Origin: a virus
Lineage: Duplodnaviria; Heunggongvirae; Uroviricota; Caudoviricetes
IMG/VR virus record: IMGVR_UViG_3300018065_000012
Reading direction: 5' to 3' (one strand)
DNA length: 64,000 nucleotides
The stretch's first letter is position 1; every line of letters starts with the position of its first letter. The position numbers and the translations under genes are program-made. The notes beneath the pieces are model-generated. The model was given only the letters and a program-made list of their open reading frames with translations, did not search any database and was not told the DNA's origin. Of the stretch, positions 1-27,632 are shown piece by piece.

Positions 1-11
1 GAGAAAGAAGT

Positions 12-4173: not shown

Positions 4174-4181
4174 GAAATACG

Positions 4182-8612: not shown

Positions 8613-8616
8613 ACTC

Positions 8617-8874
8617 ATGTCAGAGTTGGTTAAAAAAGTTGGCGTCAAAAAAGAAAAAGGCTATTTGTATTTTGTTGATAGCGATGGCGATATATCACGA
8701 GCAAAGATGGTCCGCAGAGGCTCAATAGTGCCCGTTGATCCACCGGAAAAAGTGATAAGTGGGGTAGGGGTCAAGAGAGAACCGAATTGGAATTATTTCG
8801 TCGACAAAGAAGGTCATATTTCCCGCTCACCTTCACGCAGAAGAAGGATTGACAAAATGGAGAAAGAGAAATGA
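8617..8874 (+). CDS. hypothetical protein with internal duplicated motif YFVDxDGxISR
   Basis: KGYLYFVDSDGDISRAKM and NWNYFVDKEGHISRS repeats within 85 aa. Confidence 0.35.
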   Translation: MSELVKKVGVKKEKGYLYFVDSDGDISRAKMVRRGSIVPVDPPEKVISGVGVKREPNWNYFVDKEGHISRSPSRRRRIDKMEKEK

Positions 8875-9668
8875 GCGGATTGTTAGCTGGGATAGGGAAG
8901 ATTTTTAACGGTGTCAAATATGATTTTCCCTTGGAGGCTTGCATCGCTTCTGTTTTGGAAGGGGCAGATGAATTTGTTTTGACCGTTTGTACAGACTCAG
9001 AAGACAACACTCATGAGTATTGCGTTGAACTTCAAAAGAAGTTTAACGGCAGGTTGAAAATCCTTTTGGATGTTTGGAGAGAAACGCCTGCTGAGAACTA
9101 TACCAACATGACGCGTCTTGCAAACAAAGCAATTGATGCTTCTAATTGTGATTGGTTTTGGTCAATTGACATGGATGAAATTGTTCCAACGGGGGAAGCA
9201 AATAAGCTTGCTCATTTTTTGCGTCATCAACCAATAGGCGTCACGTGCGCAATGGTGAATTTCAATCATTTATATATCGACTTGGAACACAAGATTCTTG
9301 GAAAACTGTATGACAAAATTCACCGCGTCGCAAAAGCTGGGTTTGGCTGGCGCAGCGGAATGGATGGTTGTGGATTAGGCGGTGGAAGTGGCAGAACCGT
9401 TAGCGCACCTGTGGTTGTTAATCATTACGGGTTTGTTCGTGACATGATAATAATGATTGAAAAAGAGAGCCGTTTCCAATCAGAATTGTTTCATAGTGGT
9501 GTTCCGGGTTTGCCAGATCAGCGTTTGATTGATTTCAAAAGAAAAACTCCAGAGTCGAAAAAGGCATTCTATGATGCGTTTGTAAGTCCAAACGATACGG
9601 TCATTCCTTACGACGGCCCACCGCATCATCCGCTTGCAATTCAAAAATATGGAGACGCTGTCTCATGA
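8871..9668 (+). CDS. glycosyltransferase family 2-like (GT-A)
   Basis: N-terminal ADEFVLTVCTDSEDNT and DxD-like SIDMDEIV. Confidence 0.4.
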   Translation: MSGLLAGIGKIFNGVKYDFPLEACIASVLEGADEFVLTVCTDSEDNTHEYCVELQKKFNGRLKILLDVWRETPAENYTNMTRLANKAIDASNCDWFWSIDMDEIVPTGEANKLAHFLRHQPIGVTCAMVNFNHLYIDLEHKILGKLYDKIHRVAKAGFGWRSGMDGCGLGGGSGRTVSAPVVVNHYGFVRDMIIMIEKESRFQSELFHSGVPGLPDQRLIDFKRKTPESKKAFYDAFVSPNDTVIPYDGPPHHPLAIQKYGDAVS

Positions 9669-10558
9669 TCGTCGTACGAAAGGGAGCGCTTGGAGATATT
9701 TTGATGACCACGCCAGCATTCCGAGAACTGAGGCGCAGGAATCCAAATATGTACATTGGCGTCAGAACGTTGTTCCCCGACGTTTTTGCAAACAGTCCTT
9801 ATGTCGACGAAGCGTCTGTGCGTTTGGACAGGAACAACGAAAGAAAACTCAAACTGGACGCGGAATATGAAAAGGACTTCAACCGTCATCCTGCTCATGT
9901 TTATGCAAAAGCAATCGTAGGAGATTGTGAATTTGATTGGTGGAATCTTGAACTTTTTCCAACAGAAAAAGAGCGGCTATATGTTGATGAGTGGTGGAAT
10001 AAAAACGTAAAAGACGCTTGGCCCGTAGTCGTCCTTCATTATGGGATTACATGGGTTAAATTACAATCGGCTGAAATGGAAAAATTGATACAAGCTTTGA
10101 CAAAAGAATTCAAAGTCATTCTTGTTGGAAGAAAAACCCGGAGCAAAGAATATTACCCACAATTTCGTGAAGGCGTTTTGGACTTGGTAGATGCTGAGTG
10201 GAGCATTCACAAGTTGAATTGGTTGATCCAAAAAGCCAATATGTTTGTTGGTACGGATACAGGCGTGATGCATATTGCAGCAACGACAACGACGCCGATT
10301 GTTTGCTGTTATGGTTTTGTGAATCCAGAGTTCAGAAAACCATTCAGACAGAAAATTCCTTTTGAATCTGTTGTAGGCGACATGAGCGGTTGTAATATCC
10401 CTTTCTGCGCAGAAGGGAATAAGATTAAATGTCCAAATGGAGACTTTGGCGGTGTGCGGTGCAAAAGGGATTACGCCTGTGCAAAGAGTATTACTGCTGA
10501 AATGATTTTGGAGAAAGTCAACAAAATCAAAGCAGACATTATGAAAGGTCAACAATGA
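9665..10558 (+). CDS. glycosyltransferase family 9 (heptosyltransferase-like)
   Basis: MIVVRKGALGDILMTTPAFRELRRRNP matches the GT9 N-terminal signature (i.r.salGDvl.t.Pal..lk...P). Confidence 0.55.
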   Translation: MIVVRKGALGDILMTTPAFRELRRRNPNMYIGVRTLFPDVFANSPYVDEASVRLDRNNERKLKLDAEYEKDFNRHPAHVYAKAIVGDCEFDWWNLELFPTEKERLYVDEWWNKNVKDAWPVVVLHYGITWVKLQSAEMEKLIQALTKEFKVILVGRKTRSKEYYPQFREGVLDLVDAEWSIHKLNWLIQKANMFVGTDTGVMHIAATTTTPIVCCYGFVNPEFRKPFRQKIPFESVVGDMSGCNIPFCAEGNKIKCPNGDFGGVRCKRDYACAKSITAEMILEKVNKIKADIMKGQQ

Positions 10559-11964
10559 GCAACAAATCCAGAGAAAAGAAACGCAAAGAAAAAGCGAAAC
10601 GAAAAAAACAACGGAACAAGGACAAGATCAATCATAGCATTGCTCCAATGCCGCCTGAGTTCAAGAAACAGATTTTGCCTTACGCTGTTATTAAGCTGTT
10701 GACCAATGCGGAAATTCAAGAACGTTATAAGCTGCGCGATGATTTGGTCTGCATCCGTTGGAATAACGAAGATGAAATCTTGCACAGTGAAGATTTCAAA
10801 ATGGTGAAAGAAGTAGCGCAACGCATACACAAAGAACAAGTCGTTCAGAAAAATCTTCACAACACATTGTCAACAGTTCCAACAGCGTTAGATTTACATT
10901 ACGAGGCAGCACGGCATATAAGGAAAATGGTTGATGGTGAAAGTAAAGGGAAAAAGAAGCTTATCTTCATCAAAGACCAATCAGGTTGTGGCTACTGGAG
11001 AATGGTTGTTCCAGCGAGATATATGACCACAGAGGAATATTATATTGACATGGCAGAAATTGAGGTCATTTATGATTATCTTCTTGAGTATGATGTGATT
11101 GTAGTTCAGCGGCTTTGCCGATGGTCAGAATACTATACCATCATAAGATTGAAGCGGCAAAACAAGCGAATCGTTTATGACATTGACGATAACATTTTTG
11201 ATGTTCCGCTTGATAATCCTGCCGCCTATGTAATCAAGAAAGATCAGTATGAAGCGGCTCGCGCTATCATGAGCGTCTGTGATGTTGTAACAACGACAAC
11301 GGAGATTTTGAAAGAACAACTGAAGTGTCCCGACAAGACAATAGTGGTTCCAAACGCAATTGATTTTGACGACGGTTATCCTGCAAAATATCTTGGTCAA
11401 CCAGACAACTACAAGCGCATCTTGTGGATGGGCAGCGCGACACACAATCAAGATTGGTTACAATGCGCTGATGCTGTCGACAGGGTAATGAGGGAAAGGG
11501 GCGACGTCCGGTTGGTCATTATTGGTTCAATGCCAAAAACTTTAGAGCAATATGTAGGAGACCCAAGACGCCCGTGGTATAAAAAGCGAATTGAGTTTGA
11601 AAAGTTCAAGCATGTTGAAACATATGTTCTTACTACAAAGCAACTTAGAGCAAATTGCGGACTTGCTCCATTGCAAGAATCTGTTTTCAATAGTTCAAAA
11701 TCAAACATCAAGTGGTTGGAGTACACAGGGGCAGGCGTTCCAACAATTGCAAGTAATGTTAGTCCCTACAAGGAAGACATCGTCCATGGGACAAATGGAT
11801 TTCTTGCAAATACAGAAAACGAGTGGTACCAAGCAATTACAAATCTCCTTGACGCTCCTGATATATGCACAAGCGTTGTTAGCGCAGCAAAAAAATCAAT
11901 TGAGCAAAAGTTTGATATCAAGCAAGTTATACACAAATGGGAAGAAACCATTCTTGGCGAATAA
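10555..11964 (+). CDS. glycosyltransferase family 4-like with Lys-rich N-terminus
   Basis: C-terminal GVPTIASNVSPYKEDIVHGTNGFLANTENEW is the typical retaining GT-B motif. N-terminal KKRKEKAKRKKQRNK tract. Confidence 0.5.
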   Translation: MSNKSREKKRKEKAKRKKQRNKDKINHSIAPMPPEFKKQILPYAVIKLLTNAEIQERYKLRDDLVCIRWNNEDEILHSEDFKMVKEVAQRIHKEQVVQKNLHNTLSTVPTALDLHYEAARHIRKMVDGESKGKKKLIFIKDQSGCGYWRMVVPARYMTTEEYYIDMAEIEVIYDYLLEYDVIVVQRLCRWSEYYTIIRLKRQNKRIVYDIDDNIFDVPLDNPAAYVIKKDQYEAARAIMSVCDVVTTTTEILKEQLKCPDKTIVVPNAIDFDDGYPAKYLGQPDNYKRILWMGSATHNQDWLQCADAVDRVMRERGDVRLVIIGSMPKTLEQYVGDPRRPWYKKRIEFEKFKHVETYVLTTKQLRANCGLAPLQESVFNSSKSNIKWLEYTGAGVPTIASNVSPYKEDIVHGTNGFLANTENEWYQAITNLLDAPDICTSVVSAAKKSIEQKFDIKQVIHKWEETILGE

Positions 11965-12022
11965 TTTTTTGATATTTTACGGTTAGTAGAGACATATCAT
12001 ATTGAAATTAGGAGGTTAGAAA

Positions 12023-15966: not shown

Positions 15967-16347
15967 ATGAAGGTGCGTATTGGTTTTGTGAGCAACAGTT
16001 CGTCAAGTAGTTTTCTGATTGTTGGAACCGACAGCCAAGAGCTGATTACAAAACTTCTCAATGCAGAAGGCGTTGGTTGTGAATACAGTCCGAACAATGG
16101 GATCGTTTTCGAGGACGATGATTTCTATATGAGCTACGGAACGCACGAAGGCGTACACTTGGACTTTTTTGGATACGACAACCAACCGTATTATGCTGGC
16201 TTGAGTTGTCATGAAGAATTGTGCGACGGGGAGACAGTTCAGCAGTTGATAAAAAGGTTTGCAAGGATTTGTCAAAACAGTTTGAACGTGCCGCTTGATG
16301 TCCGGAAACATCATGTGACTTTGCACTATGGTGAATGCAGTAGTTAA
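15967..16347 (+). CDS. GFVSN-leader family protein (paralog A)
   Basis: N-terminus MKVRIGFVSNSSSSSFLIVG. RBS GGGAGACTAAGGATG. Confidence 0.55.
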   Translation: MKVRIGFVSNSSSSSFLIVGTDSQELITKLLNAEGVGCEYSPNNGIVFEDDDFYMSYGTHEGVHLDFFGYDNQPYYAGLSCHEELCDGETVQQLIKRFARICQNSLNVPLDVRKHHVTLHYGECSS

Positions 16348-16357
16348 GGGGAAAGCG

Positions 16358-16675
16358 ATGCTGCCCAGAGTGAAACTGACGGAAGGTGACCGAAAATGTT
16401 TTGAGGTTGCGCGAAGAAATGTTGGGCGCGTGCGTTGCCGTTTGTACAAAAAGTTGAACGAAATACTTCGGGACAAATCAGAGTTTGACGCTGACCAAGT
16501 GGTTTCGATCATTGAACTTGAGAAGTTTGGCCAGCGGTTAAAAGACGTCGAATACGAGATTGAAAGATTTTACAGTATAGCACAAAATCAAATTGTTGAC
16601 AGAGCAGGTGGACTAAAACCGTGGTGTAAAGCCGAACAAAAGAAGAAAGCCAAAAAGAAAAGGAAGAAACGATGA
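16358..16675 (+). CDS. hypothetical protein with Lys-rich C-terminus
   Basis: ORF; KKKAKKKRKKR tail. Confidence 0.4.
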   Translation: MLPRVKLTEGDRKCFEVARRNVGRVRCRLYKKLNEILRDKSEFDADQVVSIIELEKFGQRLKDVEYEIERFYSIAQNQIVDRAGGLKPWCKAEQKKKAKKKRKKR

Positions 16676-17814
16676 AACGGCGAAAAACGTATTTCATTGG
16701 CGAAGGGGAAGAAATCTTCAATCTTGGCGGCGTGTCGTTCAGAGGGGGCGATCCTTACACAGTCGTTGAAACCAACACGGCAAAAACGATTATGTCACCG
16801 TGTGACTACCATTACATCTTCGACAAAAAGACCGGCTTCTTTGCGCGTTGGGGAAAGACGCCGAAGGATGATCCAGAATTCAGCCCCATTGGGCCTGAAA
16901 TTCTCGACTTGGAAATTTCAGTCAATGGATGTCCAAACGCATGCAAATTCTGTTACAAGAGCAATCAGGATGTCCCAGCGACTAATATGACGCTGGGGCA
17001 GTTCAAAACGCTCATGGACAAAATGCCGATGACCCTTACGCAAATTGCGTTTGGGATTACGGGCGTCCAGACAAACCCAGATTTCATTCCAATGCTGAAA
17101 GAATCCCGCAAGCGTGGTGTGATTCCAAACTTCACGCTTTCAGGAATTGACTTGACGCCGAAACTGGCTGATGAAATCGCGCCGTTGGTTGGCGGCTTGG
17201 CGGTCAGCGTTTACAAGACAGACAAGAATGTCGGCTACAACACTGTGAAGATGTTCTCAGATCGCGGTGTGAAGCAGACCAACATTCATCTAATGGCCAG
17301 CCAAGAGACGCTTGACTTCGTTTATGAAGTATTGCGCGATAGCAAAACTGATTCACGGCTTGAAAAGCTCAATGCTATCGTGTTTCTCGGGGTCAAACCA
17401 AAAGGCAGAGCCAAGGGACAATTTCATTCGCTCACTTCAGAACAGTATGCGGATTTGATCAACTACTGTTTTGAAAATGATTTGCGGTTCGGGTTTGATT
17501 CTTGTTCAGCGCCGAAGTTCGAACAAGCTGTGAAAGAGCGCGAGATGAGTGAAGAGCGCAGGAAAGTTCTATTGTCGATGTCGGAGTCTTGTGAATCTTC
17601 GCTGTTTTCGGCATACATCAACGTCAAGGGCGAGTATTGGCACTGTTCATTTTCTGAAGACGAGCCAAATGTTGAATGCGTGAACGTTCTTGAGTGCAAC
17701 GACTTCCTCAAGGACGTTTGGTTCAGTCCAGCAGTTATTAAATTTCGCCAGCGCGTGTTAAACTCGATGAGAGACGGTTGCCGCCATTGTGTGACGTATG
17801 ATTTGAAAGGTTAA
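16672..17814 (+). CDS. radical SAM domain protein
   Basis: ISVNGCPNACKFCY (CxxxCxxC); additional C-terminal Cys residues. Confidence 0.5.
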   Translation: MKRRKTYFIGEGEEIFNLGGVSFRGGDPYTVVETNTAKTIMSPCDYHYIFDKKTGFFARWGKTPKDDPEFSPIGPEILDLEISVNGCPNACKFCYKSNQDVPATNMTLGQFKTLMDKMPMTLTQIAFGITGVQTNPDFIPMLKESRKRGVIPNFTLSGIDLTPKLADEIAPLVGGLAVSVYKTDKNVGYNTVKMFSDRGVKQTNIHLMASQETLDFVYEVLRDSKTDSRLEKLNAIVFLGVKPKGRAKGQFHSLTSEQYADLINYCFENDLRFGFDSCSAPKFEQAVKEREMSEERRKVLLSMSESCESSLFSAYINVKGEYWHCSFSEDEPNVECVNVLECNDFLKDVWFSPAVIKFRQRVLNSMRDGCRHCVTYDLKG

Positions 17815-17854
17815 GTAGTTTAGAAGCCTCTACGCCTTTGACAAAGGCGAAAAT

Positions 17855-18319
17855 ATGAAATTTGACATTGACCAACCGTTTGAAGAATGGACTCCCGAAG
17901 AAAAAGGGGAGCTTCGTGTAATCTTGTTGGTTTGGTTTTGGAATATGACCATTGTTCAAAATGACGCTGTGAAAACAAAACGCATTGGAAAGCAAACATG
18001 GAAGTACAAGGAAGAGTTGTTTCAAAGAAACAGTATGGAAGTTTATGCTTTCAAGACAGTGGATATGGGCTGGGTTTTTGTAGACGATTGTCCCGACCCA
18101 TTGACCAATCAAAAAGACGTTTTTGAAATGGACAAGAAAATCAAAACAACGGGGCATGTAAAGGTTGGGTGGTATATTCGAGAATTGAGAAATATGCTTC
18201 ACAACTATTACACGCGCCAACCGTTTTCCGGAGAAGAGTGTTTCAATTTCAGATTGTTTGAGCCGTACCAGTGTTGTATTGCTGCTTATCGAGCCTTTTA
18301 CAAAATCGGTCTTATGTGA
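17855..18319 (+). CDS. hypothetical protein
   Basis: ORF with RBS. Confidence 0.4.
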   Translation: MKFDIDQPFEEWTPEEKGELRVILLVWFWNMTIVQNDAVKTKRIGKQTWKYKEELFQRNSMEVYAFKTVDMGWVFVDDCPDPLTNQKDVFEMDKKIKTTGHVKVGWYIRELRNMLHNYYTRQPFSGEECFNFRLFEPYQCCIAAYRAFYKIGLM

Positions 18320-18328
18320 GGTTACAAC

Positions 18329-18568
18329 ATGGAAGAGAAAGAAAAACCAACTTGTCCGAAGTGCGGCGGCAAATCCGGTTTCATAATGAACGAGTATGTT
18401 TGTGGCTGGTGGGAAACTTGGTATGATTGGGGTGGTAAAATTGAAAGCACCAACTTGGACAAGATGAAGCATCAGCCGTTTCCAAAATCTGTTGTTTGTG
18501 CTGATTGTAAGAAACGGATACCAAACCCTTTGCTGGAGAAAGAAAATGCTCCCCGATTGGCCGAATAG
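18329..18568 (+). CDS. zinc-ribbon protein
   Basis: CPKCGG ... CADCKKR four-Cys arrangement. Confidence 0.4.
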   Translation: MEEKEKPTCPKCGGKSGFIMNEYVCGWWETWYDWGGKIESTNLDKMKHQPFPKSVVCADCKKRIPNPLLEKENAPRLAE

Positions 18569-18773
18569 GTGGATCAATGCATCGGTGCTGACGGAAGAAG
18601 ACAGGAAGGAGCTTTGGGGTGACAATTCGCATCCCAGAGTGCCCGATATGGATCATGCAAAAGGACTGCTTCGGCGTTATGAGGCAACGTTGCGGAAATA
18701 CGAAAAGGAACTTGCATTGGCGAAAGGCGATGAGGAAACGTTTCAGCATTTGGAGAAAGTTCAACCAAGATGA
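18546..18773 (+). CDS. hypothetical protein
   Basis: RBS GGAGAAAGAAAATG; overlaps previous gene end. Confidence 0.35.
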   Translation: MLPDWPNRWINASVLTEEDRKELWGDNSHPRVPDMDHAKGLLRRYEATLRKYEKELALAKGDEETFQHLEKVQPR

Positions 18774-19261
18774 ATTACATTATTGATAAATTTACGGCTG
18801 AAACACAGGTCATTATCAACAAGAAAGCAAACGGGACTTGGTGCGCGTTGCCTTATCCCGGTCATAAGAAAGGCTGTCCAAACTTTGGAAAGAAGAAACG
18901 GTGCCCGCCAAACGTTCCTTTGATGAAAGAAGGCGCAACGGTTATGATGATCGGCGTCGCATTTGATATTGGGCGTTGGGCGTCTGAGATGAAGAAAAAG
19001 CATGCTTCGTGGACGGACAGGCAGTGTCGCTGCCTTTTGTATTGGCAGGGCACTTTGAGAAAAGAGTTGAGAGGATTTCTCAAGCAGGCAATAGCAGCAC
19101 CGTTTACGGTGATTTATGCTACGCCTGAAGGTCAAGGGGCTGATATTACAGCAATGATGAAAGCGGTTGGCAGACCGCTTCAATGGCCTCCACTTACTAA
19201 AACGTGGGCTATCGTGCTGCTCGGAAAACCTGAAGACAGGGTTGCAAGAAATGGGAAATAG
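18770..19261 (+). CDS. hypothetical protein (Cys/His-containing)
   Basis: ORF, ATGA overlap with upstream gene. Confidence 0.4.
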   Translation: MNYIIDKFTAETQVIINKKANGTWCALPYPGHKKGCPNFGKKKRCPPNVPLMKEGATVMMIGVAFDIGRWASEMKKKHASWTDRQCRCLLYWQGTLRKELRGFLKQAIAAPFTVIYATPEGQGADITAMMKAVGRPLQWPPLTKTWAIVLLGKPEDRVARNGK

Positions 19262-19592
19262 AGCGTATATTCAGTTTCAACGAGTCATTGAGCTTAGCGA
19301 TGACTTATCAGAACGGTCTGGCGATAGGCGTTATTATGGAATCTGTACGTATGATGATTTCAACCACTCAACACAACTTTGGGACAGCAAGGACGAATTC
19401 ACAAAAAACTTTGATGCTGATCCAGACCGTTTCGCGGTCAGTGTTTTGAAATTACTCCTTAATCAAGGCGATGCAAGCACCGGAAACGTTCTTGACACGA
19501 TTCAACACTATGAGCAAGGCGTTCATATAAACGGTAACTATTATATATGGGACAAAATCAAAGAAGCTTTTGAGGATGACGATGAAAATTAG
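19251..19592 (+). CDS. hypothetical protein
   Basis: ORF; ends with TAG overlapping the next start. Confidence 0.35.
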   Translation: MGNRAYIQFQRVIELSDDLSERSGDRRYYGICTYDDFNHSTQLWDSKDEFTKNFDADPDRFAVSVLKLLLNQGDASTGNVLDTIQHYEQGVHINGNYYIWDKIKEAFEDDDEN

Positions 19593-19893
19593 ATTGGGCT
19601 ACGTTTCAAATTCGAGTTCAGCATCCTTTTGGGTGCGTAAGGATATGCTCACTGATTGGCAAGTCAAAGCCATTCTGGATTACAAACGGTTTGGGGAAGA
19701 GTTTGTTCGGTTGAACGCTTTTCCAGATTTTAACGGTGGCCGTCTTGGATTTGGCGACAGTTGGGAGTTGTCTGAGACAAAAAATGGAGAACGGATTGTT
19801 GGAAGTACGTGGATGGATAACGGAGAAATGGAAATCTTTCTGAAAGCCTTGGGAGTCAAGAAAAAGGCTTACAAGATTATTGATCACAATTGA
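19582..19893 (+). CDS. GFVSN-leader family protein (paralog B)
   Basis: MKIRLGYVSNSSSASFWV. Confidence 0.5.
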   Translation: MKIRLGYVSNSSSASFWVRKDMLTDWQVKAILDYKRFGEEFVRLNAFPDFNGGRLGFGDSWELSETKNGERIVGSTWMDNGEMEIFLKALGVKKKAYKIIDHN

Positions 19894-19901
19894 GGTGTAG
19901 G

Positions 19902-20540
19902 ATGAAAGCGCGCAGTGGATTTGTAAGCAACAGTTCAACCAGTAGCTTTATCATCGTCGTTAAAAATAGCGGTGCCGAGGGTGAGGATTGGTTTGGACAA
20001 TTAGAATTCGTCGTTGGATCGTTGACGCATGGAAAAATGGACAATGTAAAGTGGCACGCAGGAAAGATTTCTGAATACCGCGAGACATTGATGCGCGAAC
20101 TCGAAGGGCTTCAAAAGAGCAAAGAAGTTTGCGAGAAAGAACTCAAAGAATTCAAAGCGATTATTAAAAACAAAGAAGCACGACGTGGTGCAGAGTTGGT
20201 TTTGGAATTGCAAAGTAGAAAGAAGCAACGGGAGTTTCAAAAAGAAGGTCCGGAAGGAATACTTCAAGAAGTAACGCTCAAACAATATGATTCTCGACGA
20301 AAGCCTTTCAACAGATTGGTCAAGAATGAACTTGAGCGTTATGATTCAGGGCTTACTGAATTGAGCAAAAAGATTGAGAAGTTGTGGGAACGTTTGAAAG
20401 CTGTTGAACCGTATAACGACAAGAAATGGAAAATGGTTTCATTTGAAGAAGAAAATAGTTGGGGCGTCGGCATTACAGATGCAGCAGAGAGGTTAGTGAA
20501 CATGGGGAAGGCAGTCATTGTTCACAAGGAGTCGACATGA
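19902..20540 (+). CDS. GFVSN-leader family protein (paralog C, coiled-coil-like body)
   Basis: MKARSGFVSNSSTSSFIIVV. Confidence 0.5.
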   Translation: MKARSGFVSNSSTSSFIIVVKNSGAEGEDWFGQLEFVVGSLTHGKMDNVKWHAGKISEYRETLMRELEGLQKSKEVCEKELKEFKAIIKNKEARRGAELVLELQSRKKQREFQKEGPEGILQEVTLKQYDSRRKPFNRLVKNELERYDSGLTELSKKIEKLWERLKAVEPYNDKKWKMVSFEEENSWGVGITDAAERLVNMGKAVIVHKEST

Positions 20541-20836
20541 AATTGCGAGCAGGGTTTGTTTCCAATAGTAGTTCGGCTTCATTTGTTGTTTGGATTCCGA
20601 TGATCAATGAACGGCAAAAGCGAGCTATCTTGAATCATACTGAATATGCAAGGGAACATGGCTTCAAATCAGAATGGATGGATCAAGAAGGAATCTTTCA
20701 TGACGACTGGGACGATGTAGAAGATGATTATCCAATGATCAAAGGAGAAATCCGTTGCGACAACGGAGATACGGAAAAGTTTTTCAAATGGCTTGGAATT
20801 AATAGTGAAGCCTTTGTGGTGAGGGATGAATCATGA
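20537..20836 (+). CDS. GFVSN-leader family protein (paralog D)
   Basis: MKLRAGFVSNSSSASFVVWI. Confidence 0.5.
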   Translation: MKLRAGFVSNSSSASFVVWIPMINERQKRAILNHTEYAREHGFKSEWMDQEGIFHDDWDDVEDDYPMIKGEIRCDNGDTEKFFKWLGINSEAFVVRDES

Positions 20837-21264
20837 AGACAAGAACGGGTTTTGTTTCCAACAGTTCCAGTTCAAGTTTTTGCATCATTGGTACTTCCAA
20901 CTGGTCAAGAGTGCTGGCAAAGAAGGAAGGGCTTTACAAAACGGAACACTATGAAGAAAAAGTTTGCGAGCACGGAAGACCAAACAAGAAAACGAAGTAT
21001 TGTCCTCAATGTGGATTTGAATTTAGCAATGCTGAGGATTTCACGTATCCTGAACTTGCTTATGGAAGCGCTCAGGGAAAAGTATTTTCCTATTATGGTT
21101 CAGAGGACGTTGATTATGCGGGTTTGGATGCAGAAGAGCTTTTGAAGAAAATGACTATTCCCCAAGCTTGTAAGCACGTTCAGGAAATAGCAGAGAAAAA
21201 ATTGGGCGTCAAGATTCCTTCAAAGCAGCTTGGATTTTTCTACGGGGAAGCGGGCAATGGATGA
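20833..21264 (+). CDS. GFVSN-leader family protein (paralog E, with zinc-ribbon CEHGRPNKKTKYCPQCG)
   Basis: MKTRTGFVSNSSSSSFCIIG. Confidence 0.55.
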   Translation: MKTRTGFVSNSSSSSFCIIGTSNWSRVLAKKEGLYKTEHYEEKVCEHGRPNKKTKYCPQCGFEFSNAEDFTYPELAYGSAQGKVFSYYGSEDVDYAGLDAEELLKKMTIPQACKHVQEIAEKKLGVKIPSKQLGFFYGEAGNG

Positions 21265-21799
21265 GTTTTTGAAAGAGGTTGAGGCTTTTGTCTATGCTGC
21301 TCATAAAGGGCAACGGCGAAAGTATACAAATGAGATGTATGCTCGACACCCTATGAACGTTGGGGCAAAGGTTGCTGAGCGGGCAGATTCGAGCGAAACG
21401 ATGATTGCGGCTGCTATGTTGCATGACGTTTTGGAAGATACAAAGATAACGTCAAAACAGTTGCGCGAGAAGTTTGGAGGGATTGTTTCTTCTTTGGTGC
21501 TTCAATTGACAAATCCTTCTAAAAATCATACAGATTTGCCCAGAGCAAAAAGAAAACAAATGGACAGGGATTTTCTGAGAACGGTTTCTCGCGAAGCAAA
21601 GATAATTAAGATGCATGATCGGCTTGACAATATATCTGACTTTGGCGATGCTCTTGAAACCGACAGGGGCTTTGTAAAGTTGTACCTTGAGGAATCACGT
21701 TTGCTTGCTGATGTGTTGGGAGACGCAGACGAAAAACTATACCATGAGCTGATGAAAGAAATCGAAAAACAAGAAGAGAGGGTAAAAGAAAATGGCTAA
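21257..21799 (+). CDS. HD-domain (p)ppGpp hydrolase-like (small alarmone hydrolase, RelA/SpoT HD family)
   Basis: AAHKGQRRKYTNEMYARHPMNVG ... AAMLHDVLEDT matches the RelA/SpoT hydrolase HD signature. Confidence 0.55.
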   Translation: MDEFLKEVEAFVYAAHKGQRRKYTNEMYARHPMNVGAKVAERADSSETMIAAAMLHDVLEDTKITSKQLREKFGGIVSSLVLQLTNPSKNHTDLPRAKRKQMDRDFLRTVSREAKIIKMHDRLDNISDFGDALETDRGFVKLYLEESRLLADVLGDADEKLYHELMKEIEKQEERVKENG

Positions 21800-22208
21800 A
21801 AAATGGTGGTATGAAACGTCTGAAGTTGTCGATAGGGACTTAGCGACTTTTTGGGATGAAGACTTTCACGGTAATTGTACTATGGATGAAGGAAGTGTTG
21901 AAAGCCTTCGCAAATGGCTGAATAAAGAAGTGAAGAAAGCAAAAAAGAAAAAGATTTTCAAAGAATTGTGGTTTGAACTTCGGCACGTTGAAGTAGATGA
22001 GTTTGGGCACATGAAATCACAGTTGGTTTTGCGGGGAAAGAGTCCTGAAACAAAAGCAGAGCGCAAAAGAAGAATGGAACATTTCATGGCGCAGGAATGG
22101 ATGGAGTTTGAAAAAGCAGAGCGCATGATGAAGCTTTACAAAACGCCTGATGGGAAGGCGCATTTCAAAAAACTGAAGGAATGGGCAGAAAGGAAGATGA
22201 AGAAATGA
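21792..22208 (+). CDS. hypothetical protein (Lys/Glu-rich)
   Basis: ORF only. Confidence 0.4.
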   Translation: MAKKWWYETSEVVDRDLATFWDEDFHGNCTMDEGSVESLRKWLNKEVKKAKKKKIFKELWFELRHVEVDEFGHMKSQLVLRGKSPETKAERKRRMEHFMAQEWMEFEKAERMMKLYKTPDGKAHFKKLKEWAERKMKK

Positions 22209-22723
22209 AAATCAGACTCGGAATGGTATCAAATTCAAGCACGTCAAGTTTTGTCGTCGTTGGTTACGGAATCGACAACAAGATGTTCTCGCGGGAAAAA
22301 ATTATGGAAGCGGTTTGGGGAAACGAATCGGATTTCCCAAAAAAGGAGCCTTCCGAGAAAAAGCGTGGTTGTGTTCATCCAGAAACCAAAGGGGCAAGGT
22401 TTTGTCCGGAGTGTGGAAAACCAACTTGGGTTGATAGTTTCAAACATGCTGAAGACAAGTTCGCTGATGAACTTTCTGATTACTATTATGAAAAACGCGG
22501 AACGGGCGACGGTTTCACGATTAGGGACGACGACGATGACGGAGCGCCAAACGGCAAGACAGTGGTTGGAATTGAAGCTGCTTGCTGGAGCGACGACGGC
22601 GATAGCGCGGAATGCGAGTGTGATTTGGAGGACATTTTTGGAAAGCTTAAAGATTTGCGCAGCAGGCTTGGCCTTTCAGATGAGGAGCAGATCAAGCTTT
22701 TCGTAGGGACTTGTGCCAGTTAA
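22205..22723 (+). CDS. GFVSN-leader family protein (paralog F, zinc-ribbon CVHPETKGARFCPECG, acidic tail)
   Basis: MKIRLGMVSNSSTSSFVVVG. Confidence 0.5.
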   Translation: MKIRLGMVSNSSTSSFVVVGYGIDNKMFSREKIMEAVWGNESDFPKKEPSEKKRGCVHPETKGARFCPECGKPTWVDSFKHAEDKFADELSDYYYEKRGTGDGFTIRDDDDDGAPNGKTVVGIEAACWSDDGDSAECECDLEDIFGKLKDLRSRLGLSDEEQIKLFVGTCAS

Positions 22724-22735
22724 GGAGAAAAGCAA

Positions 22736-23119
22736 ATGAAGATCAGAAGTGGGTTTGTAAGCAACAGCAGTTCAAGTAGCTTTTGCATTTTCGGAGTTTC
22801 CCTTGATACAAGCGAATTCAAGAAGACAAAAGCGTATCAACAAACGCTGAAAGAGTTGGCTGACAAAGAAGGAAAGACGCCAGAAGAGCTTGAAGAAAGT
22901 TGGGGCGTCTATGAAATATCGGAAGGTATCAAATTGCCTGACGATTTTTCAATGCATCAGCCTCCTGAATTTGAGACTGTTTACATTGGCCGTTCATGGA
23001 CGGGCATTAAAGACGATGAAACAGGCGCTCAGTTCAAAGAGAATGTTCGGACAGTGGTTAAAGAAATGCTCGGAAATCAAACGTTTGCAATACATGAGGT
23101 ATCGTGGTACAATGGATAG
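22736..23119 (+). CDS. GFVSN-leader family protein (paralog G)
   Basis: MKIRSGFVSNSSSSSFCIFG. Confidence 0.55.
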   Translation: MKIRSGFVSNSSSSSFCIFGVSLDTSEFKKTKAYQQTLKELADKEGKTPEELEESWGVYEISEGIKLPDDFSMHQPPEFETVYIGRSWTGIKDDETGAQFKENVRTVVKEMLGNQTFAIHEVSWYNG

Positions 23120-23128
23120 GAGAAAAAG

Positions 23129-23515
23129 ATGAAGACGCGCAGCGGGTTTGTGAGCAACAGTTCTTCAAGTAGTTTTATCATCGCATGGAAGGGTGATGAT
23201 AAGGCATTGGAGAGAAAACTTCATAAGGTTTTCCAAACGCCGAAAAAAGGCCCATTGCGTTCTTTTGCGGAAAACGTGATTGCGCTGCTTCTTGGTGGTG
23301 ATGTTTGGAAAACAGAAAAGGCTTATCGTAAGTATCATTGCTATGACGATGATGAAGAATTGCCGCACGCAGATTTGTTCAAGAAATTTGGTAAGATAAG
23401 AACAATCAGGGTGAGCAACGAAAGCGGAGAATCACTTGACGAATATTTGTACAGTGACGGGGACGCGTTTGAAGTCAAAACTCCTACTCTTGTAATCAGA
23501 TTTGAGGGACATTAG
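23129..23515 (+). CDS. GFVSN-leader family protein (paralog H)
   Basis: MKTRSGFVSNSSSSSFIIAW. Confidence 0.55.
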   Translation: MKTRSGFVSNSSSSSFIIAWKGDDKALERKLHKVFQTPKKGPLRSFAENVIALLLGGDVWKTEKAYRKYHCYDDDEELPHADLFKKFGKIRTIRVSNESGESLDEYLYSDGDAFEVKTPTLVIRFEGH

Positions 23516-23516
23516 G

Positions 23517-23918
23517 ATGAAAACAAGAAATGGTTTTGTGAGCAACAGTAGCTCCAGCAGTTTTGTTATCGTGACGTCAAAAGAGAATCACGAGCGTGCG
23601 ATGAAGGCTCTTCATCCATATGTTCAAGACGTTGTAAACCAAGTCATCAAGTATGAGAAATTCCTTGGACAAGACGTCGTTTATTTTGGCGATTTGAGCG
23701 TTCAAGGGTACGGCCCTATCACTATGGGTGATGAGTTTGATGATACCATTGATGGGAAATGGGACAGCGAGCTTGATGACGACGATGAAAACAAGGGCAA
23801 GCAAAAACGGCCAGATGGGGAATATGGCGACTTGATGACCGGCTATGATGCGGTGGAAAAATGGCAGGAAGAACTCAGAAAAGAAAAAGACAAAGTATTT
23901 GAATGGGGAGAAGGATAG
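23517..23918 (+). CDS. GFVSN-leader family protein (paralog I)
   Basis: MKTRNGFVSNSSSSSFVIVT. Confidence 0.5.
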   Translation: MKTRNGFVSNSSSSSFVIVTSKENHERAMKALHPYVQDVVNQVIKYEKFLGQDVVYFGDLSVQGYGPITMGDEFDDTIDGKWDSELDDDDENKGKQKRPDGEYGDLMTGYDAVEKWQEELRKEKDKVFEWGEG

Positions 23919-23922
23919 CAAA

Positions 23923-24450
23923 ATGAAAGTCCGAATTGGATTTGTCAGCAACAGTTCAAGTAGCGGTTTCATTGTTGGCTTTGAAAAAGGCAAGCTTCCA
24001 AAGTCAGTAGAGAAGATTCAGGACTTGCTTTTTGGAAACGACAAGCAAATTTCCATTTACGACAAAACTATTCAAACTGACCAAGCTGCGAAAACGGTTT
24101 GGGATGATTTGCAAAAAGCCAAGCCGATGACTGATGCAGAAATAGCAAATGAACTTGAACACTTTGGTGGTTGGGATTGCACTGGAAAGGTATCTTTTCC
24201 AAAAGAGATTAAGTATGATGATTTTAAGAAACCTAAAAAGGACGGGGGATGGGAATATTGCGATTGGGATCAATATGAAATTGAAGTTAAAAAACGGGGA
24301 ATGAATTGTATGTTGATGTTTAGAAAACAGTATCCCAATTTTGATTTTTTCCATTTCGAATATGGAGATGAAGATGGTGACTACTTTTGTGTAATGGAGC
24401 ATGGCGGCATCTTTGATAATGTCCTTCACTTGAAAATCAGTCATCATTAA
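23923..24450 (+). CDS. GFVSN-leader family protein (paralog J)
   Basis: MKVRIGFVSNSSSSGFIVGF. Confidence 0.5.
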   Translation: MKVRIGFVSNSSSSGFIVGFEKGKLPKSVEKIQDLLFGNDKQISIYDKTIQTDQAAKTVWDDLQKAKPMTDAEIANELEHFGGWDCTGKVSFPKEIKYDDFKKPKKDGGWEYCDWDQYEIEVKKRGMNCMLMFRKQYPNFDFFHFEYGDEDGDYFCVMEHGGIFDNVLHLKISHH

Positions 24451-24459
24451 GGAAATAGA

Positions 24460-24921
24460 ATGAAACTTACGGAAGAACAACAACAATATTGTATCAAACG
24501 TTATGAACGGGAGATACGATATTTGAAAGTGAAACGCATGAAAGCGCCAGCAGTGATCACTGAGGCGTATGAAGAGATGATTGCAAAAGTTACAGAGAAA
24601 TGCAAAGAGCTTGGCGTGACAGACAAAATTTATTTAGCGTTTTGCGAAAAGTACCATGAAATTTATATCGCTAACGAGATAGAACATTCTATTCGACAAA
24701 GTTGTTTGAAATGGCTACGTCATATTCAGAATGATGTCAGGGGAGATAAACTTACAATATGCAAATGCGTTGTACGGAATAATGGTTGTAGGCATGATTG
24801 CCCAGAGATTGAACCGGCGACAGAGCAGCAACAGAATTGGTTCAAATCATGTTGCGATGTTGATACTGGAGAGTTTTATGAAACGCCCAACGATCCACCA
24901 GACATTGATTTACAAGAATAA
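24460..24921 (+). CDS. hypothetical protein (Cys-containing)
   Basis: ORF with RBS-like GGAAATAGAATG. Confidence 0.4.
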   Translation: MKLTEEQQQYCIKRYEREIRYLKVKRMKAPAVITEAYEEMIAKVTEKCKELGVTDKIYLAFCEKYHEIYIANEIEHSIRQSCLKWLRHIQNDVRGDKLTICKCVVRNNGCRHDCPEIEPATEQQQNWFKSCCDVDTGEFYETPNDPPDIDLQE

Positions 24922-25228
24922 GTGAAAATTCTTTTATATTCGCCGTCTTATAGAACGCAAGGTTTAAGGAAGCCTTGAAAATATGAAGTGCAAATTGAAA
25001 ACATTTTTGAATTGTGCGGCCCTTCAATTTTTCAAAGGGCTGTATTAGTTTTGAGATGTTACTAAGTTTGCGCTTTCCCTTGCATAAGGAGACATTAATG
25101 AGCTTTTTCCTTTTGCTTTGGTTTTTCTTTTTGACCGTGAATTTTTCTTTAGTGTCTTATACTGACGAGCTGATTTGCAAGCAAATGGGATTCATGTAAC
25201 AAAAGAAATTCCGAAAGGACAATATGAA

Positions 25229-25900
25229 ATGAAAATGAGATTTGGTTTTGTTAGTAATAGTTCATCCCAAAGTTTTTTGATTGATATGAAAGCATATCCA
25301 ACCGTGTTTGACCTTGCGTTGCATATGCTGGAAATCAGGAATGACGACTACAAGGATTATGACGAGAAAAATAAGGAACGCTTTTTCAGTGAAGAAGTTC
25401 ATTGTTCGGAAGAGCGCAGGATTATAACATCCGAGCGCGATCGCAACACGTCTGTTTCGTTCAGCAGTTGCAATTTTGATACTGAAATTACCTGTGTTGG
25501 GAATGCTTTTTTTGTCGCTACTTGTAACAATCATCCGTTTCATGTTCATCTCAACGGACGGCTTAACCTTTATGATGCGACTTTGAATTGTGATTGGCTG
25601 AAAGAAACTTTCAAAGACGAGGACATTGAGGGAATAGAGCAAGACTTGGAATACGAAATCGAGAAAAGATTTCAACAGCGACCATTCTGGTGGCCGCGAT
25701 ACGATTTGGTTTTGAAAATAATAGACTACGAAGACAAGCGGCACGATCAATTCAAATGCAGAGATCAAGGACATTGGATGAGTCCGTATATTATCGCAGA
25801 AGGTCAATACACGGGGAAAATCGTTTGTCCACACTGTTTTATTGAAAGAGGAGTGGTCCAAGGTGAAGCCACAAAAGCAGATTTGCAAAAGATGCGTTGA
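25229..25900 (+). CDS. GFVSN-leader family protein (paralog K, Cys/His-rich body)
   Basis: MKMRFGFVSNSSSQSFLIDM. Confidence 0.5.
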   Translation: MKMRFGFVSNSSSQSFLIDMKAYPTVFDLALHMLEIRNDDYKDYDEKNKERFFSEEVHCSEERRIITSERDRNTSVSFSSCNFDTEITCVGNAFFVATCNNHPFHVHLNGRLNLYDATLNCDWLKETFKDEDIEGIEQDLEYEIEKRFQQRPFWWPRYDLVLKIIDYEDKRHDQFKCRDQGHWMSPYIIAEGQYTGKIVCPHCFIERGVVQGEATKADLQKMR

Positions 25901-27200: not shown

Positions 27201-27632
27201 ATGAAAGTTGAAGTATCACGTCAAGAAGGTGGGAGATTGCCCGTATACAAAACGCCAAACTCAGCGGGTGCTGATTTGTGTTCCATTGTTGATGAAATGA
27301 TTCAGCCGGGCGAAGTAGTTTTGATCAACACTGGGATTCGCGTTTCAATTCCAAAAGGCTATGAACTTCAAGTTCGTTCTCGTTCTGGTTTGGCATTCAA
27401 AGAACATATCTTTGTCTTGAATGCGCCGGGAACCGTTGACAGCGACTACCGTGGACTTGTGGGAGTTATCCTTGCCAACTTTGGAAAACAACCATTTCAT
27501 GTTAAGCGGGGCGATAGAATCGCTCAAGCGGTTGTTTCTAAGGTTGAACACGTTGAATGGGAAAGCGTAGAACAGGTTGACATGGACACAGAACGTGGCG
27601 AAGGTGGGTTTGGTTCAACAGGAGTCAAATAA
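27201..27632 (+). CDS. dut: dUTP diphosphatase (dUTPase)
   Basis: All five dUTPase motifs present: AGADLCS, RSGLAFKEHIFVLNAPGTVDSDYRG, GDRIAQAV, RGEGGFGSTG. Confidence 0.85.
   Translation: MKVEVSRQEGGRLPVYKTPNSAGADLCSIVDEMIQPGEVVLINTGIRVSIPKGYELQVRSRSGLAFKEHIFVLNAPGTVDSDYRGLVGVILANFGKQPFHVKRGDRIAQAVVSKVEHVEWESVEQVDMDTERGEGGFGSTGVK

Follow-up and report, generated by a model that had tools for sequence, protein, structure and literature searches.

A radical SAM enzyme and an array of proteins sharing an N-terminal tag as a putative protein-maturation module of phages

In the window, the whole 64-kb stretch of phage DNA analysed here, 11 + strand genes at 15967-25900 all open with the same tag, MKxRxG[FYM]VSNSS[ST]x[SG]F, and a radical SAM gene (16672-17814) lies among them. 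Comparison with other phage loci suggests, with a probability that we put at roughly 0.57, that one SPASM/Twitch-type radical SAM maturase and its many tagged substrate proteins make up a phage protein-maturation module. No description of a phage system of this kind was found in the literature.

The tag and its coding

As the preliminary description had stated, all 11 genes are open reading frames beginning with the motif, and a six-frame regular expression search of the window returned exactly these 11 copies, with none in 50 shuffles. Among the window tags, M1, K2, R4, G6, V8, S9, N10, S11, S12, and F16 are invariant; in the wider family the tag is found at residue 1 throughout, with fixed spacing and high conservation (K2 0.99, R4 1.00, S15 0.97, F16 0.97). 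The variation of the leader serine codons noted earlier was also observed, as every Ser position mixes the AGY and TCN codon boxes, both in the window and among 533 unique family genes, and third-position identity in the tags is 0.38-0.65. Given the mixed codon boxes, the fixed spacing, and the conserved residues, selection on the tag operates at the peptide level. Wrongly assigned starts, which the preliminary description had named among the findings that would undo its claim, are excluded, since a GGAG/AGGA-type ribosome-binding site lies 5-10 nt upstream of all 11 tagged genes and 416 of 438 family ORFs (96 loci) have a start codon at a distance of exactly five codons upstream of Gly6. That the leader could not be matched to a known motif agrees with Pfam, NCBIfam, and PDB, where the 16-residue tag gave no match, but not with PHROGs, where it matches the N-terminus of phrog_7397, a family of no assigned function.

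Organization of the array and bodies of the tagged proteins

All genes described here are on the + strand. The first tagged protein (15967-16347, 126 aa, body class 0, tag MKVRIGFVSNSSSSSF) has a body homologous to that of 20833 and is the sole copy upstream of the enzyme. A small ORF with a Lys-rich C-terminus (16328-16675, 115 aa) overlaps both of its neighbours, has no family match, and is not part of the conserved module. Downstream of the radical SAM gene are four ORFs (17855-19592) that are not conserved with the module and form no recurrent cluster in other loci: two interspersed ORFs of no assigned function (17855-18319 and 19167-19592), a zinc ribbon ORF matching phrog_9107 (18329-18568), and an ORF with a DUF2284-like metal-binding motif (18770-19261). 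Tagged proteins 2 (19582-19893, 103 aa, tag MKIRLGYVSNSSSASF) and 4 (20537-20836, 99 aa, with a 4-nt overlap with each adjoining gene) are both of body class 1, and between them is tagged protein 3 (19902-20540, 212 aa), whose class 16 body is Lys/Glu-rich and helical. Tagged proteins 5 (20833-21264, 143 aa) and 6 (22205-22723, 172 aa) carry class 0 bodies with a zinc ribbon, inserted in the former; the tag of the latter has Met at position 7. They are separated by two non-family genes that are not recurrent with the module (21230-22208), one with a RelA/SpoT-type HD hydrolase domain (21230-21799; HD_4, E 2e-12) and the other a 138-aa ORF of no assigned function (21792-22208). The array continues with tagged proteins 7 (22736-23119, 127 aa, class 0), 8 (23129-23515, 128 aa, class 3), 9 (23517-23918, 133 aa, class 7, with an acidic tail), and 10 (23923-24450, 175 aa, class 2), the last of which matches phrog_7397 over its full length (E 3e-12) and is of the same subtype as phT4A gp221. 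After a non-family Cys-rich ORF with no match (24460-24921, 153 aa), it ends with the Cys-rich tagged protein 11 (25229-25900, 223 aa, class 5).

Compared without their first 20 residues, the 11 proteins form seven classes, namely {15967, 20833, 22205, 22736}, {19582, 20537}, and five singles, and profile-profile comparison between classes gave a probability of at most 11% for every pair. The bodies, described earlier as unrelated or weakly related, are thus more precisely classes whose sequences are without detectable mutual homology. The zinc ribbons reported in some of them are visible as CxxC...CxxC patterns in 20833 and 22205, with weak Pfam matches. The bodies are acidic (median pI 4.5). 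The tagged family as a whole comprises about 20,500 cluster representatives, unannotated and nearly all phage-borne, typically arranged in tandem arrays of 2-15 tagged genes; it includes at least 98 body clusters, of which phrog_7397 covers only one.

An AF2 model was obtained for 22736-23119, a member of class 0, which is the commonest body type and the only class modelled (pLDDT 90.6); compared by fold, it gave no match. Residues 1-10 of the model are of low confidence (pLDDT 51) and not packed, and residues 13-24 are built into the fold as a strand, which makes part of the tag structural: in class 0, its second half (SSSF-h-h-h-G) is predicted to supply the domain's first beta-strand. To that extent the word leader misleads.

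The radical SAM enzyme and its association with tagged genes

The gene at 16672-17814 had been correctly recognized as radical SAM: its product contains the motif CPNACKFC and matches Pfam Radical_SAM (E 3e-6) and SPASM (E 0.003). It has a SPASM/Twitch-like C-terminal auxiliary Fe-S region with only four invariant auxiliary cysteines, as well as a distinct N-terminal all-beta domain, and its predicted fold is closest to those of the peptide and protein maturases SuiB, SkfB, PqqE, and anSME. In a scan of NCBIfam, the enzyme matched none of the curated subfamily models, and no Hxs-named model was among its matches.

Across very diverse phage contigs, tagged-gene arrays have no conserved neighbour other than the enzyme. 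Of 85 distinct tag-anchored locus groups, 54 contained a homolog of it, 50 of them detected by direct BLAST, and no other neighbour family was present in more than 11 of the 85 (≤13%). Enzyme and tagged genes were on the same strand in every case (49/49), with 244 tagged genes downstream of the enzyme versus 39 upstream, and the nearest tagged gene on the downstream side followed within 50 bp in 12 of 43 cases and within 2 kb in 40. Reciprocally, 66 of 80 enzyme-anchored viral loci contained at least one tagged gene and 55 contained two or more; two further loci with variant tags bring the total to 68. No tagged gene was present within 10 kb in 12 of the 80 enzyme loci, and 35 of 84 tag-anchored groups had no enzyme within 10 kb, several of these being contig edges or, by record names, having the enzyme elsewhere on the same contig. 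No conserved RiPP recognition element, small partner protein, protease, or exporter was found across the loci, and the ORFs immediately upstream of the enzyme (91 loci) formed no cluster larger than three.

Among 50,697 records of cultured phages, the enzyme was found in 172, one tagged protein in 175, and another in 174, all with the same genus breakdown. The module is carried by the E. coli phages RB43, RB16, Lw1, and phT4A and by Vibrio phage D479, an independent lineage with the enzyme and five tagged genes within 10 kb, and enzyme and tag co-occur in three separate cultured lineages. In Slopekvirus, the enzyme is 20-24 kb from its two tagged genes. The E. coli phages and D479 make the idea of maturation directly testable.

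Concerted variation of the tag

Where tag position 6 or 7 carries a rare substitution, the tags of a genome change together (0 of 2000 permutations). T6 was found in 9/9 tags of L165, D6 in 4/4 of L161, S6-L7 in 4/4 of L099, and H7 in 4/4 of L102. These variant tags span bodies of different classes that have G6-F7 in other genomes, and within a genome they are encoded by different codons, all four Thr codons being used for T6 in L165. Concerted substitution across unrelated bodies with differing codons implies a single genome-encoded reader shared by the tags. Few deviations at conserved positions were seen in the enzymes of the lineages with variant tags, and enzyme-tag covariation was not demonstrated. 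The reader could be encoded elsewhere in the genome than at the enzyme gene.

Proposed mechanism and alternative explanations

The enzyme would serve many clients, each consisting of the tag M-K-x-R-x-G-F-V-S-N-S-S-S-S-S-F at residue 1 followed by one of a large number of small bodies that are unrelated to one another and mostly acidic. The exposed residues 1 to about 12, the first to leave the ribosome, would dock on the enzyme, perhaps by adding a strand to its N-terminal all-beta domain; we count the low model confidence of residues 1-10 as accessibility of the tag. Radical chemistry would then take place on the invariant S9-N10-S11-S12 region, the candidates, in no order of preference, being oxidation of a Ser C-beta to an aldehyde (as by anSME), a side-chain crosslink, and epimerization. 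A single enzyme would in this way place one and the same modified N-terminus on a wide range of diversifying phage proteins, and the arrays may serve as rapidly evolving effectors, possibly in host takeover or counter-defence. The enzyme-substrate link is drawn from comparative genomics, and we infer that the enzyme reads the tag and modifies it, as we do the chemistry and the biological role. The earlier suggestion of leader-recognized substrates of a modifying enzyme is the one favoured by the two-way linkage, the maturase-like fold, and the concerted variants, the modification itself being probable rather than observed.

It is unlikely that the tag is instead a targeting signal that directs its proteins into the capsid (as in the T4 internal proteins), to a compartment, or to a protease or chaperone, the machine reading it being encoded at another place in the genome and the radical SAM gene linked for some other reason. 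A short invariant peptide at residue 1 of many unrelated bodies does fit such a signal, and residues 1-10 are unpacked in the class 0 model; the Slopekvirus arrangement also fits, as do the concerted variants, which require a shared reader without naming it. However, the enzyme-only, two-way linkage would be left unexplained, no acidic or protease-type cleavage motif is conserved after the tag (11 window copies and the wider family), and removal past about residue 12 would damage the class 0 domain. The tag has no hydrophobic signal-peptide core, the bodies are acidic whereas T4 internal proteins are basic, and the genes nearby serve replication and nucleotide metabolism and do not belong to the head. 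A search for virion proteomics of phages with the module returned none. The capsid-targeting comparison made in the preliminary description is thus unsupported.

Somewhat more doubtful is that the tagged proteins are partners of the enzyme, the tag being a docking handle and each body an adaptor or regulator that delivers its own target (a host protein, nucleic acid, or metabolite) to the one catalytic subunit, or inhibits it. The six to seven consecutive invariant small polar residues at fixed spacing (S9 N10 S11 S12 ... S15 F16) resemble a reaction site more than a docking strand, and the nearest structural relatives of the enzyme act directly on the bound peptide, although the linkage and concerted variation would fit partners equally, diverse bodies are expected of specificity modules, a chemistry cannot be read from the tag, and the N-terminal beta domain could bind it. 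Exchangeable adaptor subunits are not known to us among SPASM/Twitch enzymes.

We regard as improbable that the enzyme acts on a nucleotide, nucleic acid, or cofactor and is near the arrays through inherited gene order, with the tag an intrinsic oligomerization strand or ligand loop. Under inherited order, other neighbours should have been retained as well, yet none is above 13% while enzyme identities drop to 36%, and co-occurrence holds in the three separate cultured lineages; an intrinsic element would not be common to bodies without detectable homology, nor vary in concert by genome. Finally, although the motif is at the 5' end of every gene and AAA or AAG is common as the second codon of well-translated genes, a DNA- or RNA-level translation or regulatory signal, or wrong starts, is effectively refuted by the codon mixing (including the Thr codons of L165), the ribosome-binding sites, and the start offset.

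Comparison with known systems

Both parts of the proposed maturation module have unannotated counterparts in PHROGs, 23923-24450 being a full-length member of phrog_7397 and the enzyme a member of phrog_7293, a family of no assigned function; the PHROGs output records no link between the two. Like the capsid-targeting sequence of T4 internal proteins, the tag is a short conserved N-terminal peptide on unrelated, rapidly diversifying, clustered small phage proteins, but it has no protease-type cleavage motif, is partly a fold strand, precedes acidic bodies, and is linked to a radical SAM enzyme. Unlike in sulfatase maturation by anSME/AslB, the tag has no C/S-x-P/A-x-R motif, the clients are not sulfatases, and the enzyme does not have the full SPASM set of cysteines.

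In RiPP SPASM/Twitch systems (SuiB/StrB of streptide, SkfB/CteB of sactipeptides, ChlB of triceptides, and PqqE/PqqA), the enzyme likewise adjoins one or more genes with a conserved recognition sequence and a variable remainder, and their maturases are nearest to the phage enzyme in predicted fold. The phage clients, however, are folded proteins of 100-220 aa rather than short peptides, and what they conserve is found at residue 1 and is probably where the reaction takes place, not a cleaved leader before a variable core. Nor does the phage module conserve an RRE domain, a PqqD-like partner, a protease, or an exporter; it is encoded by the phage, a locus can hold as many as 15 clients, and its enzyme is outside the curated NCBIfam subfamily models.

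In the HXS anti-phage system, the HxsA effector is matured by the radical SAM enzymes HxsB/HxsC with HxsD, the folded protein being modified at a Ser-rich SHRSS motif and processed near its N-terminus (PMC13128918). That system is bacterial, uses two enzymes together with HxsD, has only one effector, which contains internal repeats, and exports its product, whereas the module described here is phage-encoded and would pair one enzyme with many clients, each with one N-terminal copy of a different motif. The two would have in common the radical SAM maturation of a folded protein at a short Ser-rich motif and a setting of phage-bacterium conflict, and we count this precedent in favour of the maturation reading.

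The conserved N-terminal tag

The eleven ORFs named in the preliminary description (15967-25900) were all present on the + strand, and each begins M-K-x-R-x-G-[FYM]-V-S-N-S-S-[ST]-x-[SG]-F followed by hydrophobic residues. A six-frame regular-expression search of the 64 kb window returned exactly these eleven copies of the tag, and 50 shuffled versions of the window gave none. When the eleven proteins are aligned with MAFFT, M1, K2, R4, G6, V8, S9, N10, S11, S12, and F16 are invariant, and next to nothing aligns outside these positions. A GGAG/AGGA-type ribosome-binding site lies 5-10 nt 5' of each ATG and, in the 96 loci compared, the start codon is exactly five codons before Gly6 in 416 of 438 motif-bearing ORFs; mis-assigned starts were excluded. 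The variation in Ser codons described earlier was confirmed both in the window and in 533 unique family genes. Because the AGY and TCN boxes are both used at every Ser position, selection acts on the tag peptide, and an explanation at the level of DNA or RNA was excluded.

Compiled from 533 unique proteins, the profile of the tag reads M1, K2 (0.99), x, R4 (1.00), x, G6 (0.93), F7 (0.95), V8 (0.94), S9, N10, S11, S12, S13 (0.85), S14 (0.79), S15 (0.97), F16 (0.97), and two hydrophobic residues, with fixed spacing. Here S9-S12 were imposed by the regular expression used for collection; SNSS was also present in 259/259 members obtained through the profile instead. On inspection, the tag had no twin-Arg, hydrophobic core, or lipobox that would indicate a Tat, Sec, or lipoprotein signal.

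The leader had been reported as matching no known motif. This held for Pfam, NCBIfam, and PDB sequence-profile searches, in which the tagged proteins found no match, but not for PHROGs: phrog_7397 (unknown function) matches ten of the eleven proteins solely through their first ~20 residues, and the product of 23923-24450 aligns with it at full length (E 3e-12; protein 1-175, profile 1-170).

Distribution of the tagged family

A profile search of 5.8 billion proteins gave 639 hits, nearly all of 95-155 aa, unnamed and lacking Pfam domains, with the motif at residue 1 in 117 of the 120 hits listed. An exhaustive HMM search of 1.84 billion representatives gave 20,573 matches at E≤1e-3, the lower tier of which contains some Ser-rich false positives, and 583 at E≤1e-10. 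Family members were found mainly on IMG/VR viral contigs of 50-550 kb (the contig of the window itself is up to 338 kb) and, in a collection of species-representative genomes, solely in MAGs from scattered phyla. Tandem arrays predominate, with 2-15 copies per ~20 kb in 79 of 96 loci; 424 of 438 tagged copies have the same orientation as the query gene, and the median length of the proteins is 124 aa.

Six predicted database proteins of 170-280 aa (P0122, P0123, P0124, P0128, P0139, and P0170) each contain two tagged units, both complete, one after the other. Read-through or mis-calling of neighboring array members probably accounts for them, and through them arrays are seen to be common on short metagenomic contigs as well. 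Two MAG contigs carry a single tagged gene resembling the commonest body class (class 0) and no enzyme homolog within 10 kb: L087 (Pirellulales, 2.6 Mb; 10001-10309) and L090 (Planctomycetia, 530 kb; 10001-10336). These genes could be prophage remnants or chromosomal copies.

Bodies of the tagged proteins

The bodies, the parts that follow the tag, had been described as unrelated or only weakly related, and at the sequence level they are. Stripped of their first 20 residues, 533 bodies fell into 98 phmmer clusters, 69 of them singletons, and the eleven of the window into seven, namely {15967, 20833, 22205, 22736}, {19582, 20537}, 23923, 23129, 25229, 23517, and 19902. Comparison of class profiles by hhalign gave a probability of ≤11% for every pair. 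The idea of one fold with a variable insert, which came from C-terminal motifs and the class 0 alignment, was thus rejected for the bodies as a whole: with the tag stripped before phmmer and hhalign were run, it is true within class 0 only, and no relation between classes could be detected. The bodies matched neither a sulfatase nor any other Pfam domain. They are acidic, with a median pI of 4.5 and 81% below pI 5, against 19% of the other ORFs of 80-230 aa in the same loci, a control made of crude ORF calls.

The radical SAM enzyme

The window has three radical SAM genes, of which the one at 16672-17814 lies within the cluster of tagged genes. Its product carries CPNACKFC and matches Pfam Radical_SAM at E 3e-6, just below the gathering score, and SPASM at E 0.003. 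Among 43 homologs, C87/C91/C94 are kept at 95-100% (they are invariant in A5 and A6) within the motif C-x(3-20)-C-x2-C-Y-K-x-N, in which the first spacing is variable, and four more cysteines (C278, C307, C325, and C373) are invariant. The protein thus combines the three-Cys [4Fe-4S] motif and the C-terminal Cys-rich domain for auxiliary Fe-S cluster(s) that define the radical SAM SPASM/Twitch group. At E≤1e-10 the enzyme family comprises at least 1,615 members. Its relatives carry generic names ("MoaA/NifB/PqqE/SkfB family" or "AslB"), curated NCBIfam subfamily models match it weakly, and phrog_7293, of unknown function, matches it at E 2e-82. The known structures nearest to its predicted fold were SuiB (24.2), SkfB (21.7), PqqE (19.7), BlsE (19.1), anSME (19.0), CteB (18.9), ChlB (18.5), viperin (18.5), TigE (18.3), and EpeE (17.5), eight of the ten being peptide or protein maturases. 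The N-terminal domain is all-beta, with seven strands in residues 3-60.

At three loci (L039, 7707-9453; L044, 5279-7888; L064, 6412-8926) the radical SAM gene is in two pieces that bear the marks of a split intein ("fractured gene"). The N piece terminates in C-x2-[C-(L/S)P(A/D)G...], and the C piece has a ~35-residue M...HN segment followed by C-Y-K, so that the insertion falls exactly at the third Cys of the cluster motif.

Linkage of the enzyme and the tagged genes

Among loci collected around tagged genes, enzyme homologs were detected in 54 of 85 distinct groups (direct BLAST sufficed for 50), and enzyme and tagged genes shared a strand in 49/49 groups. Tagged genes are mostly downstream of the enzyme (244, and 39 upstream), and the distance from its stop to the first downstream tagged gene was ≤50 bp in 12/43, ≤500 bp in 21/43, and ≤2 kb in 40/43. 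Judging by contig names, several loci without a detected homolog are contig edges or belong to contigs bearing the enzyme elsewhere. As a control for plain synteny, neighbor families were built by clustering crude ORF calls from all of these loci; the next commonest families each occurred in ≤11 of 85 groups, and by eye they look like ThyX, UDG-like proteins, transposase, phosphoesterase, clamp loader, RecA-like proteins, ligases, and HNH endonucleases. In this clustering, single linkage joined to the radical SAM cluster an ORF at 27201-27632 (+) that resembles dUTPase by eye and has eight homologs in other loci.

The association was also seen from the other side. At least one tagged gene was present in 66 of 80 viral loci collected around enzyme homologs, and at least two in 55 of 80, usually beginning within a few hundred bases of the stop of the enzyme; two further loci of this set contain variant tags missed by the regular expression. 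Since no small partner ORF is conserved beside the enzyme, the recurrent module consists of the enzyme and the tagged genes only.

Concerted variation of the tag

In some genomes, all copies of the tag depart from the consensus together: Thr6 in 9/9 tags of locus L165, Asp6 in 4/4 of L161, Ser6-Leu7 in 4/4 of L099, and His7 in 4/4 of L102. Within-locus pairs with both tags variant numbered 49 at position 6 (5.3 expected) and 16 at position 7 (2.3 expected), counts reached in 0 of 2000 permutations. The bodies in these loci are of different classes (similar within-locus pairs, 0/36, 0/6, 0/6, and 0/6), and the same classes bear G6-F7 in other genomes. All four Thr codons are used for Thr6 in L165, and third-position identity in the tags is 0.38-0.65; as the variants use different codons, recent gene conversion is not the explanation. 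The tag variant follows the genome rather than the body, which implies one genome-encoded reader, and the radical SAM enzyme, as the sole conserved linked gene, is the candidate that sequence comparison offers for it. Covariation of the enzyme with the tag was also considered, and the deviations in variant-tag lineages (W60F, P68V, and A235S in L161; D67N in L099) are too few to interpret.

The module in cultured phages

Searched directly against GenBank phages, the DNA of the window and two tagged proteins gave no match, and the tag was probably hidden by the low-complexity filter. Members in cultured phages were reached only through the enzyme, followed by a genome scan. Enzyme homologs with 42-44% identity occur in 172 of 50,697 GenBank phage records, which belong to Slopekvirus (KP15, KP27, phT4A, Miro, PMBT1, and phiEap-3) and the RB43 group (RB43, RB16, Lw1, Miller, and GAP161). 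In phT4A, the genes directly beside the enzyme have no tag, and a whole-genome scan located the tagged genes gp221 and gp226 on the same strand, at a distance of 20-24 kb. By tblastn these two were found in 175 and 174 records, distributed over genera just as the enzyme is. Because the carriers are related lineages, this co-occurrence counts for little as independent evidence. A separate lineage is represented by Vibrio phage D479 (258 kb), which encodes the enzyme at 39% identity and five tagged genes ≤10 kb upstream of it, on the same strand. The annotation of module genes in cultured phages is either "hypothetical" or a generic radical SAM label. No virion proteomics of Slopekvirus, Pseudotevenvirus, or D479 turned up in a literature search; one study concerns Jiaodavirus (PMC13119998), a genus not among the module carriers found here.

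Between gp221 and gp226 lies gp223 of phT4A (NC_055712.1, 61913-64129; 738 aa), the N-terminus of which resembles by eye a von Willebrand factor A domain (MIDAS, D-x-S-x-S). A similar motif was seen in a recurrent neighbor cluster at locus L033.

Other genes in the window

A second and larger paralog family, of ~25 small + strand ORFs of 65-110 aa with four Cys, extends over 14588-63500 and has the motif (M)L[SN]KK[IV]CxxC ... W ... C ... PP..C.[FY].LEH. Examples start at 14588, 15311, 25842, 26077, 26599, 28934, 34610, 40992, 41465, 41659, 45166, 50219, 50482, 52560, 53639, 54125, 54339, 57264, 57710, 58329, 58663, 58856, 59160, 59869, 60893, and 63217. As it was found in only two distinct other loci (L010/L097 and L064/L107), it is lineage-specific and outside the enzyme-tag module.

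Inside the tagged array, 21230-21799 (+) encodes an HD_4 protein (RelA/SpoT-type HD hydrolase; Pfam E 2e-12) that does not recur with the module. A 163-aa ORF a short way downstream of the enzyme (18770-19261, +) has the Cys-rich metal-binding motif of DUF2284 (E 2e-5, exactly the gathering score) and is not conserved at other loci. An 868-aa ORF on this phage-like contig (30701-33307, +) has major vault protein domains (MVP_shoulder, E 8e-22; Vault_3, E 4e-6). The block at 1-12000 (+) comprises at least four glycosyltransferase genes (12-893, 5380-6261, 9665-10558, which is GT9, and 10555-11964) and the two further radical SAM genes, 2884-4173 and 6911-7834, the latter with a clear SPASM domain.

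Tagged proteins as probable clients of the enzyme

The tagged proteins are best read as clients of the radical SAM enzyme, and most likely as its substrates. The earlier proposal of a modifying enzyme is favored by the two-way linkage, the shared reader, and the maturase-like predicted fold, and the modification itself is a prediction from these. The N-terminal ~12 residues would be an accessible segment for both docking and reaction, and the candidate chemistries are oxidation of Ser in the manner of anSME, epimerization in the manner of EpeE, or a crosslink like the one that joins an aromatic residue to a C-beta in triceptides. In triceptides, the ring of the aromatic residue in an aromatic-x-x motif (Omega1-X2-X3) is crosslinked to the C-beta of X3 by a radical SAM enzyme (PMC11499958). 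The corresponding F7-V8-S9 fits ~98% of tags; Leu7 and Met7 variants exist, and they weaken the case for an obligatory aromatic at position 7, as a cyclophane on F-V-S would need.

We give a probability of about one in three to a fuller reading, in which a single phage maturase places the same modification on the extreme N-terminus of many diversifying, unrelated acidic effectors, as a protein-level analogue of RiPP maturation. The phages would span many lineages, from T4-like coliphages to huge phages of 300-550 kb. The modified tag (it might be a reactive aldehyde, a crosslinked cap, or an end that resists proteases) would give all of them one chemical handle or warhead, which they would need in order to act on the host. 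With as many as 15 unrelated acidic proteins at a locus, the arrays have the look of a set of effectors that evolves fast, and in phages such sets often prove to be host-takeover or counter-defense factors.

Instead of being substrates, the tagged proteins are possibly adaptors of the linked enzyme. It is also possible that the tag is a capsid-targeting signal, which a conserved leader before a variable body had earlier brought to mind. The capsid-targeting peptide of T4 ends in a prohead-protease cleavage site, (L/I)-x-E. Against this reading, neither a conserved Glu nor a cleavage-like motif occurs at positions 1-22 of the 533 tagged proteins, and the bodies are acidic. R-x-G-F suggested a glycyl-radical site, in which the radical is carried by an invariant Gly within the fingerprint R-V-x-G-[FYW]. 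This was rejected, since whole lineages have another residue in place of Gly6 and the enzyme does not resemble an activase.

If the enzyme modifies the tag, a function would be assigned to one of the larger unannotated phage families (~20,500 representatives when clustered at 50% identity) and also to a radical SAM family of phages with >1,600 members, both still "hypothetical" even in the well-known coliphages RB43 and RB16. Radical SAM peptide maturation would be extended to a logic of one enzyme and many folded proteins in viruses, and protein engineering could gain a portable N-terminal tag of 16 residues that has its own enzyme. The module is widespread, unannotated, and open to direct testing in E. 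coli with existing phages.

Comparison with known systems

Both families are already present in PHROGs, as "unknown function", and our literature searches, which covered 8 million papers for the motif string, found no paper with that string and no description of the module. On the best-supported reading of the sequences, what is new would be a phage-encoded radical SAM maturase with tagged substrates, acting on proteins, one enzyme serving many clients.

The likeness to RiPP and T4 capsid-targeting systems is one of analogy, not membership. As precursor genes with a common recognition sequence do in RiPP loci, the tagged genes lie beside the proposed maturase, in two-way synteny, on the same strand and often within 50 bp. 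The precursor of a RiPP system is short; it loses its leader, and the modified core is then released or exported. The proposed clients here have a median of 124 aa and folded bodies. No RiPP recognition element (PqqD-like winged helix) was found in the enzyme, with its all-beta N-terminal domain, or as an adjoining small ORF; a small PqqD/HxsD-like partner was sought beside the enzyme and none is conserved; and no protease or transporter family recurs near the arrays. Membership is withheld because there is no RRE, protease, or exporter, and because the clients are large and folded. The tag also differs from the substrates of anSME in that it lacks the sulfatase motif (C/S)-x-(P/A)-x-R.

HXS is a bacterial defense system in which a radical SAM enzyme matures a folded protein at a Ser-rich motif (PMC13128918). 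It comprises HxsA, with His-x-Ser repeats, and HxsB, HxsC, and HxsD, whereas the module has one enzyme, no HxsD-like partner, and no HxS repeats, and none of the NCBIfam models that the enzyme matched at E up to 0.1 bears an Hxs name. By analogy, HXS is the closest functional precedent for the proposed maturation.
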